From assembly GCA_964579625.1 (NCBI GenBank), contig CAZOGU010000004.1, forward strand, positions 5,496 to 69,495: a DNA stretch of 64,000 nucleotides, given 5' to 3'. The translations under genes and the position numbers were made by a program. The number at the start of each line of letters is the position of its first letter. Position 1 is the stretch's first letter. The notes under the pieces are model-generated. The model ran no database searches. It worked only from the letters and a program-made list of their open reading frames with translations, and had not been told where the DNA came from. Below, one piece after another: positions 2,057 to 63,025 of the stretch. Origin of the DNA: an uncultured Pseudobdellovibrionaceae bacterium (lineage in GTDB: Bacteria > Bdellovibrionota > Bdellovibrionia > Bdellovibrionales > JAGQZY01).

Positions 2057-2086
2057 AAAGCCTCCCACAAGGAGGCTTTTTTTATT
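2057..2086 (+). terminator. Rho-independent terminator after the 1005-2006 gene
   Basis: AAAGCCTCC-CACAA-GGAGGCTTT stem-loop followed by a T run. Confidence 0.6.
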
Positions 2087-2104: not shown

Positions 2105-2306
2105 ATTTTTTAAAATTTAGAGATTTTTCAAAAGAGTTCTTAAGTCGACCTCCGTTGAGCGTGACGCGATCGTGAGCGAAGCGAACGACAACGGCAGAGC
2201 CAAGGAGGGACAGAGAGTGCAACTCGTTTGCGAGCTATGCTCGCAACTGTCCCGGACGAGCGTGTCGATTTAAGAACTCTTTTGAAAACTCTCTAAATTT
2301 TAAAAA
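2105..2306. repeat. Copy 1 of a hairpin element of about 200 nt: 44-bp AT-rich outer stem and 114-nt GC-rich conserved core
   Basis: 2105-2148 pairs with 2263-2306 (one T-C mismatch, one G-T). The core shares identical blocks of about 26 nt with 61908-62014. Lies 15 nt 3' of the uvrC stop. Confidence 0.8.
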
Positions 2307-2321
2307 AAGATTTTCGTTGTA

Positions 2322-4061
2322 TCAATCTTCTGGCAGAAAAGCCTTCTCCCGAAGTTCGCGGTGGAAGCTGATTGCAAAACGATGAGCCTCATCACGGAGG
2401 GAAACCAAAATTCGAAACGCCTCCGAGTTGGCTGCAAAAATCACAGGGTTCTGTCGATTGGGCAAATAAAAACGCTCGAAGGTTTTTTCGATCTTGTCAT
2501 CCCCAAATTGTCCTTTGGTTCGTTCTTTGGCAAGACCGACAATCGGAATATGTTGCTTATTCAAAGCCTTTAATGCTTCCATGGCAAACTTGAGTTGTCC
2601 TTTTCCGCCATCGACGACAATCAATTGCGGCTCTTCCCACTCATCATGTTTAAGTCTGCGAGATAATACTTCCTTCATGGCTTCAAAATCGTTCATGCCT
2701 GCAAAGGATTTGATTTTGTAGCGACGATATTGATCTTTGTTAGGAACACCATCCACGAAGACCACTTGCGAAGCCACAGTCTCCTGTCCCTGAAACGTGG
2801 AAATATCATAACACTCGATACGTCGAGGATAGTGAGGCAAATGAAGTTTGTCTTTGATAAGCTCCAAGGCCTGTTTTTTTTCTTCGTTTTTAGTGACATG
2901 GTTTTGGAACTTCTTTTCAGCGTTGGTTTGCGCCATTTCTAGCAGCTTTTGACCGATACTGCTGGTTGGAAAAATAATTTGTGTGGGATGATCCGAATAG
3001 AGCTTTAAAACCTCAGTTAATAGCTTGCGCAAATCATTGCCAATATCCAGAGGCAAAAGAATTTCGTCCGGCACAACGTTTTCGGCATAATACTGGTTTA
3101 AGAATGTCATCAACCAATCGCGCACATCCTCGTCGGGTGAAGAAGAATCAAGTAGCGGAAAGAAATGTCCCTTATGACCAATCACAGCCCCCTGGCGAAC
3201 GTGAACGGAACAGATCAGAGTTCCACGTTGATCGCCGTAAAAACTAAAAATATCTTGGTCTTTATCAATATCTGTATTGATCACAGACTGTTTTTCTAAA
3301 ACCCGTTGAATGGCCTTAAGACTGTCGCGCACGCGGGCGGCCATCTCAAATTTTTCTTGCTCGGCAAGGCCATTCATTTGTAATTCGAGATTTTTAAGGA
3401 GTTTGGCATTTTTGTTTTTGAAAAAGTTTTGAGCTCCTTTAATGGACTCTCGATAATCTTCTTCGGTGATCAATCCCACGCAAGGCCCTGAGCACTTTCC
3501 GATGTCGTAAGAAAGACAAGGTCTTTTGCGACTCTTAAAATAGTGATCCGTGCAATCGCGGAGCTTATAAACATTGTTTAAAAACTCAATGGTATCGTGA
3601 ACGATCTGCCCGCTCAAGTAGGGGCCAAAATAAGTCGCCCCGTCGCGCTTCACTTTGCGGGCGAGATAAAAGCGCGGAAAATGATCCTTGAGAGTGAGTC
3701 GAATATAGGGATAGGATTTATCATCTTTGAGACGAATGTTATAGCGTGGGCGATGCTTTTTGATCAGTGTGGCTTCGAGAAGAAGCGCTTCGGCTTCTGT
3801 CTTTGTAACGATGTACTCAATATGAAAAATGTTTCTGACTAAAAATTGAGTTTTTGGACTTTCGTGATTTTTTTGAAAGTAACTTCGCACGCGGTGACGC
3901 AGCTCTTTGGCTTTTCCCACGTAGATAATCTTCGAATCTACATTCTTCATCAGGTAAACACCGGGGCTCACCGGGAACTCTGTCACCAGTTTTCGAAGAG
4001 ATTCGATTTTGATTTCGTATTTTGTTTCGGCCACGGTCCATTCTAGCGGAGGCAAAAACAA
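2322..4061 (-). CDS. uvrC: Excinuclease ABC subunit C
   Basis: N-terminal GIY-YIG (PGVYLMKN..IIYVGKAKELRHRVRSYF), full UvrC-length architecture and a C-terminal HhH region. TTG start. Confidence 0.93.
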   Translation of the reverse strand: MFLPPLEWTVAETKYEIKIESLRKLVTEFPVSPGVYLMKNVDSKIIYVGKAKELRHRVRSYFQKNHESPKTQFLVRNIFHIEYIVTKTEAEALLLEATLIKKHRPRYNIRLKDDKSYPYIRLTLKDHFPRFYLARKVKRDGATYFGPYLSGQIVHDTIEFLNNVYKLRDCTDHYFKSRKRPCLSYDIGKCSGPCVGLITEEDYRESIKGAQNFFKNKNAKLLKNLELQMNGLAEQEKFEMAARVRDSLKAIQRVLEKQSVINTDIDKDQDIFSFYGDQRGTLICSVHVRQGAVIGHKGHFFPLLDSSSPDEDVRDWLMTFLNQYYAENVVPDEILLPLDIGNDLRKLLTEVLKLYSDHPTQIIFPTSSIGQKLLEMAQTNAEKKFQNHVTKNEEKKQALELIKDKLHLPHYPRRIECYDISTFQGQETVASQVVFVDGVPNKDQYRRYKIKSFAGMNDFEAMKEVLSRRLKHDEWEEPQLIVVDGGKGQLKFAMEALKALNKQHIPIVGLAKERTKGQFGDDKIEKTFERFYLPNRQNPVIFAANSEAFRILVSLRDEAHRFAISFHRELREKAFLPED

Positions 4062-60426: not shown

Positions 60427-61821
60427 TTAAACTCGCTTATAATCGTCCTGATAACGTTTTATGTCGTCTTCGCCAAAATACTCACCGGTTTGAACCTCGA
60501 CAAAACGAAGGGTTTTGTCACCCGTATTTTTAATACGATGTTTGGAGTTCGCTGGGATCACAATGGAACTCCCAGGAAAAACATTCACGGCTTGTTCATT
60601 GATAACGACGTCCCCTTCCCCTTCAATCACCACCCAATGTTCACTTCGGTGCACATGAGATTGATAAGAAAGCTGGGCTCCAGGATTTACTTTAATGACC
60701 TTGATTTTAAACTCAGACGTGTCTGATATAATTTCGTACTGACCCCAAGGCCGAAAATCAAACGAGTGTTCCGAGGTTTTTTTATTCTTCTTTTTATTGA
60801 GATCATCAACCAGAGTTTTGATATCTTGCGACGACCCTTTTTTTGAAATCAAAAGAGCATCGGGAGTATCGACCACAATCAAATCTTCGACTCCCACAAG
60901 ACCCACCAGTTTTTGTTTTAATGAGAAAACAAAATTATTCTGTGCTTTCACCTCGAGAACTTCCGAGTGGCTAACTCCTTGTGAAACTTTGTTTTTAAAG
61001 AGTTTTGCAAAATCATCCCAAGACCCCAAATCATTCCAGCCCATCTGACAAGGAATGCAAATTTGGTTGGGCGCTTTCTCCATAATACCGTAATCGATAC
61101 TGATCGACGGCATTTTTTCGTAAACGTCTTTGAGGTTGGAAAAGTCTGCTTTTAAAAGAGATACCGTTTTCCAAACCTCGGGAAGAAAGGTTTTAAACGC
61201 CGCAATCATCGTCGAAACTTTAAAAACAAACATCCCGGCATTCCAATAATATCTCTTCTCACTCAAAAACTTTTCAGCCGTTGCGAGATCCGGTTTTTCG
61301 CGAAAGCCGCGCACTTGCTTTGCGTGAAGATTTTCATGATTTGCAAAATCAGCGGTATCGCACTCAATATAGCCAAATCCGGTAGCGGGATAATCGGGTT
61401 CAATCCCAATCGTCACGATTTGGTTTTTCTGCGCACACTCAGCAGCAAAAAGAACCGCTTTTTTAAATTCTTTTTCATCGGAAATCATATGATCTGCGGG
61501 AAAAATTCCAACAATCTCATCTTCTTTCTTTAATAAATGCATTTTCCAACAGATCAACGCCAAGGCGGGAGCCGTATTTTTAGCAAAAGGCTCATAGATG
61601 ACTTGCGAAGACTGCATCCCTAAATCGCTGATACACTTGTCGGTAAGAACGCGCAACCCCTCTACGGTGATCACTTCTGGTCGGCCAAGGGCAGACACCC
61701 GCTTTAAAGTCTTCTGCAAAAGAGGCTCATCAACAATATCACAAAACTGTTTCGGATAAGACGATCTCGAAATCGGCCACAACCGACTCCCCGACCCACC
61801 TGATAATATTACTGGTATCAT
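60427..61821 (-). CDS. manC: Mannose-1-phosphate guanylyltransferase / mannose-6-phosphate isomerase (type II PMI-GMP)
   Basis: PVILSGGSGSRLWPISR and a C-terminal cupin (SYQSHVHRSEHWVV). Confidence 0.9.
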   Translation of the reverse strand: MIPVILSGGSGSRLWPISRSSYPKQFCDIVDEPLLQKTLKRVSALGRPEVITVEGLRVLTDKCISDLGMQSSQVIYEPFAKNTAPALALICWKMHLLKKEDEIVGIFPADHMISDEKEFKKAVLFAAECAQKNQIVTIGIEPDYPATGFGYIECDTADFANHENLHAKQVRGFREKPDLATAEKFLSEKRYYWNAGMFVFKVSTMIAAFKTFLPEVWKTVSLLKADFSNLKDVYEKMPSISIDYGIMEKAPNQICIPCQMGWNDLGSWDDFAKLFKNKVSQGVSHSEVLEVKAQNNFVFSLKQKLVGLVGVEDLIVVDTPDALLISKKGSSQDIKTLVDDLNKKKNKKTSEHSFDFRPWGQYEIISDTSEFKIKVIKVNPGAQLSYQSHVHRSEHWVVIEGEGDVVINEQAVNVFPGSSIVIPANSKHRIKNTGDKTLRFVEVQTGEYFGEDDIKRYQDDYKRV

Positions 61822-61859
61822 AAATCTCCCAAGCTAAACTTTGCCAACAAAACACAGGC

Positions 61860-62062
61860 TTTCTGAGATTTATTTTTACGGGATTTTAAAAACCTTCTTT
61901 TTCGGACCTCCGTTGAGCGTGACGCGATCGCCACCGGCGACAACAGCAGAGGTACGGAGGGGCAGAGAGTGCAACTCGTTTGCGAGCTTCGCTCGCACTG
62001 CCCCGGACTGCCGTGTCCGAAAAAGAAGGTTTTTAAAATCCCGTAAAAATAAATCTCAGAAA
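61860..62062. repeat. Copy 2 of the hairpin element of about 200 nt: perfect 48-bp outer stem and 107-nt conserved core
   Basis: 61860-61907 is perfectly complementary to 62015-62062. The core blocks are identical to those of 2149-2262. Lies 27 nt 3' of the metF stop. Confidence 0.8.
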
Positions 62063-62089
62063 ACGAAGCAACCTGTCGGCTTTCATCTC

Positions 62090-63025
62090 TTACAGCTGAC
62101 TTGCACTAAGTCTCTTTATAGCTTCACAATTTATTGAAGTGTCGGCAAGGACAAAGAGGTGGACGCCGTGGGCGCCGGTCTTTTTTAAGGACTCTACCAG
62201 TCGAAAGAATGGCTGGAGAAGATTGTCCGTCGTCGCCTGTTCTCCCTCTTCGGGAAGTGCTTTGTAATACCAGTCTGGGACGGAACATTGAAATCTTTGT
62301 TCCATGACTTTGGCTTGCTTTTTTGATTTCAAGATCCGCAATCCTGGCAGCACAGGTTGGCTGAACCCCATTTTTCTAACATCGTTTAAAAAGACCTCGT
62401 ACTTTTCGGGGTCAAAGAGCATTTGCGTGATGGCGTACTCTGCCCCCGCCTCGAATTTGGCTTTGATATACTCTTTACGCTCCGTCGGGTCTGGATGCTC
62501 AGGGTAAGCGGCAACACCGATGCAAAACTGGGTTTTTTCTCGCGCATCAACGTCAAAGCCTTTGCGCTTAATAAACTCTCCGCGATTCATACGACCGATG
62601 TGGGATACAAGCTCATATGCATACGAGTAGCCACCGGGGCGCGGTTTCCATTCTGTTTCGCCCATGGGCGGATCTCCACGCAGCGCTAAGATATTACGGA
62701 TTCCAAAGTAGTGATGATCCATCAGTTGGTTTTCGACTTCTTCGGGGACCAGATCTCGGCAAGTAAAATGGGCAATGCACGGACGGTTTAACTTTTCTTT
62801 GATCACTTGTGCAATGGGAAGACTTCCGCCGCGCAAGCTGCCTCCAGCTCCTTTTGTCACCGATAAAAAGTCCACGCCCGAATCGATAATATTTTTTAAT
62901 TTTGTAAATGTTTGCGCCTGATCTTCCCCATTGCGCGGGGGAACGACCTCTGCAGAGGTCGTAAATTTTTTGGCTTTTAAAACCTCAATGACTGTTTTAT
63001 CGATTGAATATCCTAAGGTCATCAT
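62090..63025 (-). CDS. metF: 5,10-methylenetetrahydrofolate reductase
   Basis: FLSVTKGAGGS, AHFTCRD, ILALRGDPP, VAAYPE and AITQMLFD motifs. Confidence 0.85.
   Translation of the reverse strand: MMTLGYSIDKTVIEVLKAKKFTTSAEVVPPRNGEDQAQTFTKLKNIIDSGVDFLSVTKGAGGSLRGGSLPIAQVIKEKLNRPCIAHFTCRDLVPEEVENQLMDHHYFGIRNILALRGDPPMGETEWKPRPGGYSYAYELVSHIGRMNRGEFIKRKGFDVDAREKTQFCIGVAAYPEHPDPTERKEYIKAKFEAGAEYAITQMLFDPEKYEVFLNDVRKMGFSQPVLPGLRILKSKKQAKVMEQRFQCSVPDWYYKALPEEGEQATTDNLLQPFFRLVESLKKTGAHGVHLFVLADTSINCEAIKRLSASQL

Follow-up and report, generated by a model that had tools for sequence, protein, structure and literature searches.

We found a family of hairpin-shaped repeats, 140-200 bp long and apparently undescribed, in uncultured Bdellovibrio-like bacteria. 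Two copies lie in the window (the whole 64,000-nucleotide stretch of DNA analyzed here), and about 14 further elements were found beyond it in related Bdellovibrionales assemblies. A conserved core, which is a small multi-hairpin junction, is enclosed by long arms that are perfectly or nearly perfectly paired and differ from copy to copy. We regard these sequences, with a little more confidence than doubt, as foldback repeats comparable to REP elements and MITEs, in which the core is selected and recognized while the arms are kept by template switching or conversion at the DNA level.

The element between metF and manC (copy 2; 61860-62062) is a perfect inverted repeat with 48-bp arms around a 107-nt core. 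Its left arm (61860..61907, plus strand; 48 nt, 29% GC) and its core (61908..62014, plus strand; 107 nt, 65% GC) are followed by a right arm (62015..62062, plus strand; 48 nt) that is the perfect reverse complement of the left. The first-pass annotation of this DNA had described a perfect 48-bp stem here and a second copy of the same element near uvrC, and both descriptions are borne out: the arms of copy 2 are 100% complementary, and stretches of 27 and 26 nt are identical between the two cores, which agree at 88% over 60 nt and sit on different arms that are only ~60% identical. The uvrC element (copy 1; 2106-2307) encloses 114 nt in arms of 44 nt that are 95% complementary. It consists of a left arm (2106..2149, plus strand; 44 nt, 23% GC), a core (2150..2263, plus strand; 114 nt) in the same orientation as that of copy 2, and a right arm (2264..2307, plus strand; 44 nt) with two mismatches against the left, one of them G.T. 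The arms have 23-29% GC and the cores 61-65% GC, in a window of 42% GC. In the 64-kb window, 19-22-mers of the core are found exactly two times; shuffled sequences predict none. The proneness to hairpin or cruciform formation that the annotation had suggested is strong, with folding energies for the two strands of copy 2 of -113.6 and -116.5 kcal/mol (z = -12 and -14 against shuffles).

Both copies lie 14-27 nt beyond minus-strand stop codons, the position that had been reported for them. Copy 2 is 27 nt from the metF stop codon (62090..62092, minus strand; ORF 62090-63025(-)) and 38 nt from the manC start codon (61819..61821, minus strand; manC starts at 61821), and both gaps are as first given. 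The close placement of copy 1 behind the uvrC stop codon (2322..2324, minus strand) also stands; the gap measures 14 nt, not the 15 nt originally stated. The plus-strand terminator noted ahead of copy 1 (2057..2086, plus strand) is real and canonical: it is the intrinsic terminator of the gene at 945-2006, and it lies outside the element, 20 nt before it. The 353-aa ORF of that gene has no Pfam match, a signal-like N-terminus, and a C-terminal region rich in Gly, Asp, and Arg. Outside the perfect arms of copy 2, the flanks at 61838-61859 and 62063-62089 carry a degenerate inverted match (GCCGACAGG vs. CCTGTGTTTTGTTGGC), as would be left if the palindrome once extended further and its outer part had eroded. 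Across the window (1-64000), the GC skew of the plus strand is negative in 13 of 16 bins of 4 kb, with an overall value of about -0.04. This C-rich strand is the "sense" strand of both cores, a sample of two that is uninformative on any replication-related orientation.

The common plan of the core was defined by minimal cores of 54-57 nt (L004, L036, and L050 7721-7776). CUC pairs with GAG, and CYGUUG pairs with CAACRG; the latter stem (P2b) encloses the invariant AGCGUGANGCGA and a hairpin of the form UCG...CGA (P2c). A further hairpin (P4) always carries GGA in its loop, and the core ends in CGU, after which the right arm begins. The CCGUUGAGCGUGANGCGAUCG block is invariant in the core, and the family-wide block (CYGUUGAGCGUGANGCGAUCG), 21 nt long, is unchanged across genomes of 42-51% GC. 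In copy 2, the P2 domain (61910..61946, plus strand) comprises the invariant block CCGTTGAGCGTGACGCGATCG (61910-61930, plus strand), the variable hairpin TCGCC-ACC-GGCGA (61928-61940, plus strand), and CAACAG (61941-61946, plus strand), whose pairing with CCGTTG includes one C.A mismatch. P4 of copy 2 (GGT...GCC; 61951..62012, plus strand) has a GGA-containing loop (ACGGA ... GGACT) that is split by a nested module, D2 (61959..62004, plus strand; 46 nt), whose stem GGGGCAG/CTGCCCC encloses two small hairpins, GAGT-GCA-ACTC and GCGAGC-TTC-GCTCGC. The corresponding parts of copy 1 are the invariant block at 2152-2172, a longer variable hairpin at 2170-2188, and D2 at 2207-2253 (all plus strand).

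Base pairing in the core is retained through sequence change. The P2c hairpin takes four different stems, all paired (loops ACC, TCC, GAA, GCAA, and GCA), and P4 takes eight, again all paired, in which the three wobble pairs are without exception G.U on the sense strand. P2b shows one compensated change, in L036, besides the mismatch in copy 2, and the stem of D2 shows one compensatory change, G-C to A-T, between the window copies. Among the P4 loops (AGGA, TGGA, ACGGAA, ATGGAG, and GGGA), there is one GGA-loop hairpin per minimal core, and the window copies have two GGA motifs. Six of the 10 P4 hairpins fit CANGGANG, the CsrA/RsmE site consensus. Over core and inner arms together, seven wobbles are of the G.U type and two of the A.C type, an imbalance that favors one strand and hints at a strand-specific single-stranded function, possibly as RNA. 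We considered a small ORF, since both window copies have an SD-like AAGGAGG followed by GTG, and rejected it: the reading frame is not kept across a 1-nt indel, and the region is missing from the minimal elements. A sigma-54-like TGGCAC-N5-TTGA was also set aside, being found in a single copy with neither spacing nor sequence conserved elsewhere.

Larger cores are built by optional nested modules of the "stem plus two hairpins" kind, such as D2. In both window copies, D2 (46-47 nt) interrupts the P4 loop immediately behind GGA; it is absent from the orthologue of copy 2 in L049, in which P4 is an uninterrupted hairpin, GGTAAGGACTGCC. Another element (L050 10935-11140) carries a different insert of this kind, 56 nt long, in its first domain. 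The presence of D2 in the window paralogues, its absence from L049, and the other insert in L050 show that the family is modular, and that modules follow paralogues rather than orthologues. "Type B" elements (two in L054, one each in L055 and L007) have the GAG-P4-CGU module and the inner arms in common with the rest and differ in the first domain; the orthologues at the uvrC site in L054 and L055 combine a different P2 domain with similar inner arms.

An exact scan with the 21-mer CCGTTGAGCGTGACGCGATCG gave real homologues only in Bdellovibrionales-type assemblies. Among eight genome matches, those in the Bdellovibrionaceae MAG ARS45 (four loci) and the Bdellovibrionales MAG JTS-AC431 (one) are real, with long and differing arms, and three are chance matches in high-GC coding DNA, as are 25 of the 26 metagenome matches, the remaining one being real. 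With a relaxed core pattern, viral contigs gave chance coding matches only, and BLAST against plasmids and phages gave no match. The orthologous metF and uvrC neighborhoods of relatives yielded five more complete and three truncated elements, with five on two contigs of JGI 3300071567 (L050 and L054). Copy numbers are drawn from ~260 kb of sequence. The UvrC protein of the window is 100% identical to a Logan-contig protein, and its best named relatives are Bdellovibrionaceae MAGs, at ~77%. As far as we have seen, the family is limited to one clade of uncultured Bdellovibrionales, within which copies are gained or lost between related genomes.

Directly behind a complete element (L054:6148-6331) lies a partial inverted second copy of the type B core and inner arm (L054:6333-6387), and the two form a nested, overlapping inverted-repeat structure. 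At L003:66-97, ~130 nt upstream of an intact element, there is a decayed inverted core fragment of the ARS45 type, with GTCGAGCG replacing GTTGAGCG, which probably remains from a copy since lost. In independent short-read assemblies, six contigs (L047, L048, L049, L053, L055, and L056) end within an arm or a core, L048 exactly at the boundary between the two.

The arms are AT-rich and 28-67 bp long across the family, and 604 of their 623 pairs (97%) are Watson-Crick. Six of the remaining pairs are G.T and three A.C, a difference between strands that is not significant, and mismatches occur mostly at the outer ends. Arms are specific to each copy with the exception of the innermost 10-20 nt, a T-run and then ~5 nt, which are conserved within a genome; the inner left arm of copy 2, CTTCTTTTTCGGAC, is common to the L049 orthologue, and similar inner arms occur in other family members. 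Arm sequences have no matches elsewhere in the ~260-kb sequence set, which lends no support to their being copies of other loci. The idea that they are copies of the local flank is likewise unsupported, since empty sites contain no arm-like sequence, with intergenic DNA too diverged to decide.

Orthologous copies allow the rate of arm change to be compared with that of neighboring genes. In metF, 58% of four-fold degenerate sites differ between the window and L049, and in uvrC 47% differ between L054 and L055; for the arms of the orthologous elements in these pairs, divergence is just 23% and 16%, respectively. The arms therefore change about four times more slowly than synonymous sites; a substitution in one arm is matched in the other, and orthologous arms are still perfectly paired where both are visible. 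Since orthologous copies have outlasted near-saturation of synonymous sites, they are old residents. Only ~1% of arm pairs are G.U, so compensatory evolution at the RNA level is unlikely to be the sole cause of this pairing, and a homogenizing process at the DNA level fits better. Template switching between the arms of an inverted repeat is reported (PMC8604942, PMC13100816, and PMC8794818) to homogenize and enlarge the arms and to invert the spacer, and from the pattern of change we infer that it, or conversion between the arms, acts here.

Palindromes that lack the core were also seen. A bidirectional terminator between convergent genes (L055:7575-7675) is a 101-nt perfect palindrome with 40-nt arms, and its orthologues (L053:7505-7610 and L054:2025-2130) are ordinary short terminators. 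It looks like a recent "palindromization" without a conserved core and, relative to those orthologues, indicates that palindrome-building operates in this lineage. Another pair of convergent genes flanks a perfect palindrome (L050:4441-4507) whose 33-nt arms are separated by one nucleotide and whose sequence has no relation to the element family.

The spacer between metF and manC shows how one site differs among relatives. In L049 (MetF 95% identical to that of the window) the element is present and oriented as in the window; in L050 (MetF 84%) there is an element with similar arms and an inverted core; and L051, L057, and L059, which form one clade, have no element and spacers of only 24-39 nt. 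In a genome with the empty site (GCA_043757265.1), 20 kb contained no element at all. Two of these empty sites hold a small hairpin followed by a T-run: a GC hairpin at L057:3921-3960 (GCGGGCCC-CTC-GGGCCGC-TTTT) and another at L059:10921-10957 (GGACTT-ATC-AAGTCC-ATTT). The element therefore sits where these relatives have a terminator-like hairpin, in the position of a small terminator or attenuator of metF. The history of the site could be explained by a single gain or loss together with one inversion. The similarity between the arms of the window and L050 (score 15) is barely above the paralogue background (9-20), so that inversion in place is inseparable from independent insertion. Direct repeats that could represent a target-site duplication were absent around all eight elements inspected, and the empty sites are too diverged to give an exact junction.

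A scan found no terminator-like site at either window element, and neither is flanked by a T-run of five or more; we agree with the first reading that these are not intrinsic terminators. Promoter-like sequence was found neither in the core nor in the arms of copy 2, where the first reading had suggested that the manC promoter might lie in an arm. In the loci examined, there was no transposase or other direct sign of mobilization and no RAYT gene next to elements; no CsrA gene was present in this small sample of loci, no recombinase gene was seen nearby, and a crude regular expression found no RT-like motif in 259 kb. No Rfam family was assigned to the element at gathering and E-value thresholds; matches to plant miRNA precursors reflect the long hairpin only. 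Other identities were rejected on structural grounds. Integron attC sites have R'' (RYYYAAC) on the 5' side, R' (GTTRRRY) on the 3' side, conserved ends, and a variable center; here the two motifs come in reverse order (GTTGAGC ... CAAC), and it is the center that is conserved, in place of the ends. A retron ncRNA (msr-msd) would call for an adjacent retron RT, and the neighbors are housekeeping genes. Hammerhead and other ribozymes were dismissed on motif order, junction lengths, and the lack of Rfam matches.

The closest known architecture is that of TwoAYGGAY (RF01731, Rfam clan CL00106), an orphan motif (Weinberg et al. 2010). Both are multi-copy and non-coding, and in both a core with a GGA-loop hairpin is closed by a very long, near-perfect, variable, AT-rich P1; the account in PMC2864571 describes the P1 of TwoAYGGAY as often very large, at 24 bp with two mismatches only, and the arms here, at 28-67 bp with 97% Watson-Crick pairs, show this feature. 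Membership fails, however, on score, on GGA-loop count, and on the invariant domain. One element (L050 7679-7818) gives a full-length match of 29.6 bits, below the gathering score of 43 and resting mostly on the long P1 stem; at E<=5-10, there is no match for L050 7035-7180 or for either window copy. TwoAYGGAY has two AYGGAY terminal loops, as opposed to one GGA-loop hairpin in each minimal core here, and no counterpart of the invariant CCGUUGAGCGUGANGCGAUCG domain; it occurs in gut Clostridia and gamma-proteobacteria, as opposed to Bdellovibrionales. A 2026 preprint (10.64898/2026.09.22.753630), which names TwoAYGGAY 52 times in its text and has "reverse transcriptase" in its abstract, may have assigned a partner protein to that motif; we treat this as a lead only. 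Compared with GGA sRNAs of the Csr/Rsm type (also CL00106), which carry several GGA hairpins and a promoter and terminator of their own and bind CsrA, the present elements have one CANGGANG-like hairpin each, with two GGA motifs in the window copies, and no promoter or terminator was found.

Mobile and recombining repeats offer other parallels. REP and REPIN sequences (RAYT/TnpA-REP) are thought to be recognized as folded single strands, and they affect the stability of mRNA 3' ends. Like them, the present elements are short, intergenic, hairpin-forming, multi-copy, mostly located behind genes, and long-lived residents; unlike REPINs, in which the arms are conserved and the loop varies, they have a conserved core on copy-specific arms. 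With bacterial MITEs (Correia, ERIC, RPE), they share a size of ~100-200 bp, a non-autonomous character, inverted-repeat ends, intergenic location, and presence/absence polymorphism. MITEs, however, have conserved terminal inverted repeats and usually target-site duplications; here the outer arms are unrelated between copies, with the inner 10-20 nt alone in common, and no duplication was seen. Template-switched inverted repeats (quasipalindrome correction) resemble the family in their perfect arms, the flipped core, and the palindromized terminator of L055, but correction is a mutational process that makes no element family and leaves the conserved core unexplained. Finally, the T-shaped ITR of parvoviruses (AAV) consists of a long stem topped by two small internal palindromes, with flip and flop orientations. 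A capped long stem, an internal part found in both orientations, and GAGC-rich hairpins recall that structure, as a lead only: the elements here are chromosomal and internal, and no Rep or HUH gene was identified.

Orientation with respect to neighboring genes bears directly on function. We defined the sense strand of the core as the one with CCGUUGAGCG and P4; for copy 2, this strand (with CCGTTGAGCG) is the plus strand of the window, antisense to both metF and manC. Eleven of the 14 family loci adjoin a stop codon. Relative to the gene with that stop codon, the core is sense at five loci (L050-I1, L001, L005, L007-A, and L036) and antisense at six (copy 1; copy 2 and L049; L054-I1 and L055; L054-I2; L003; and L007-B). 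The other three (L050 7035-7180, L050 7685-7812, and L004) precede start codons by 61-92 nt, in 5' or divergent regions. Neighbors are unrelated housekeeping genes, among them uvrC, metF, manC, and genes for RsmB/F and peptidases, besides purF-like and xthA-like genes, and no conserved neighboring gene was found at the family loci.

These orientations decide the fate of the proposal, made in the first-pass annotation from the shared polarity of the two window copies, that the element is a polarity-dependent 3'-UTR element (a stabilizer, processing site, or non-canonical terminator) fixed in orientation behind genes. The position of the window copies, the proximity of most members to stop codons, and the small terminator-like hairpin at the equivalent place in empty metF-manC sites would all suit such a role. 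The placement next to stop codons holds, and the fixed orientation does not: the mix of five sense and six antisense loci fails the proposal's own test, a core is inverted at the metF-manC site itself (L050), three elements lie ahead of start codons, a whole sister clade lacks the element, and there is no U-tract. The inference from shared polarity is thus refuted and the reading as a whole largely so, which makes it very improbable; the metF-manC element is genuine, and a polarity-based 3'-UTR role for it is not supported. The only candidate effect still tenable is one of the symmetric stem that is independent of orientation, as an RNA 3'-end barrier or RNase III substrate. The inverted core also raises the possibility of an inverton, in which a recombinase acting on the conserved inner arms would flip the core and so change the expression of neighbors, for example the surface-polysaccharide genes manC/msbA. 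In keeping with this are the short segment enclosed by inverted repeats, the conservation of their inner 10-20 nt within a genome, both orientations at one locus (between genomes only), and the location of all three L050 copies within a polysaccharide gene cluster. We nevertheless think it improbable: no promoter-like sequence was found in copy 2, no recombinase gene was seen nearby, and many copies adjoin housekeeping genes unrelated to one another or lie at the 3' ends of genes. Known invertase sites are much shorter than arms of 28-67 bp, a single orientation is seen in independent assemblies of the window strain where they reach the core (L053), and spacer inversion is also a by-product of template switching (PMC8604942). 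That the hairpins are chimeras of assembly or amplification is scarcely credible. Several contigs do end inside elements, but assembly with short k-mers collapses an inverted repeat and should leave contig ends in its arms, and complete elements with conserved cores at orthologous positions occur inside long, independent NCBI, JGI, and Logan contigs, which shows that they are not assembly artifacts.

The main rival to our preferred reading is a strand-specific structured ncRNA in which a long P1 closes a functional core, as in TwoAYGGAY; it could, for example, titrate a GGA-binding protein (CsrA/RsmA) or serve an RT or another RNA-binding enzyme in trans. Covariation in P4, P2c, P2b, and D2 argues for it, as do the exclusive sense-strand G.U wobbles of P4, the 21-nt block held invariant over genomes of differing GC content, the fit of more than half of the P4 hairpins to CANGGANG, and the one full-length, sub-threshold match to TwoAYGGAY, whose P1 is also very long. 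Set against these are the random orientation with respect to host transcription, copy 2 being antisense to its own operon, the lack of any conserved promoter or terminator, and the rarity of G.U in the arms, which is atypical for selection at the RNA level alone. Each minimal element has, moreover, a single GGA hairpin, the other copies have no TwoAYGGAY match, and neither a CsrA gene nor an RT-like motif appeared in the small sample of loci examined. On balance, we consider an ncRNA possible and rather doubtful. Less likely again, and more speculative, is a chromosomal "T-shaped hairpin" substrate: a core on a copy-specific stem, in the form of RNA or of extruded or single-stranded DNA, that would serve a dedicated trans-acting enzyme (an RT, as may now be suggested for TwoAYGGAY, an HUH nuclease, or an invertase), with arms made or renewed by fold-back (snap-back) synthesis. 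If true, this would be a new mechanism of mobilization or regulation and no passive repeat.

The reading that we prefer, somewhat above even, is the REP/MITE-like foldback repeat with a selected core and arms maintained at the DNA level. The core would be the part under selection for both sequence and structure, a recognition module for a trans-acting factor that would act on its single-stranded or extruded form. Replication template switching or arm-to-arm conversion would keep the arms perfect, and the same process would homogenize them, could lengthen them, and would invert the spacer. If transcribed with the operon, the 48-bp stem would form in either orientation; at metF-manC it would most plausibly be a barrier to 3' exonucleases or a target of RNase III, which would partly uncouple metF from manC with no intrinsic terminator involved. 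We infer the trans-acting factor, the homogenizing mechanism, and the consequence at the RNA level from the patterns described above. Counting against this reading, the persistence of orthologous copies and the slower change of arms than of synonymous sites imply selection, which a purely selfish element would not need. The strand bias of the wobbles in core and inner arms and the absence, in the loci examined, of a transposase, target-site duplication, or other direct sign of mobilization also weigh against it.

If this description holds, the family reverses what is usual in bacterial palindromic repeats: conservation lies in the loop, and the stem varies freely yet stays perfectly paired over long evolutionary periods. 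Bacterial chromosomes would then offer, in this family, a natural setting in which to study how long perfect inverted repeats arise, persist, and flip, with template switching and arm-to-arm conversion as candidate processes. The "huge P1" architecture, unexplained in TwoAYGGAY, would also have a second, independent example. In practical terms, the elements break short-read assemblies and fragment Bdellovibrionales MAGs. For the bacteria themselves, they would put double-stranded RNA stems of 40-60 bp into operons, such as metF/manC in the surface-polysaccharide cluster.
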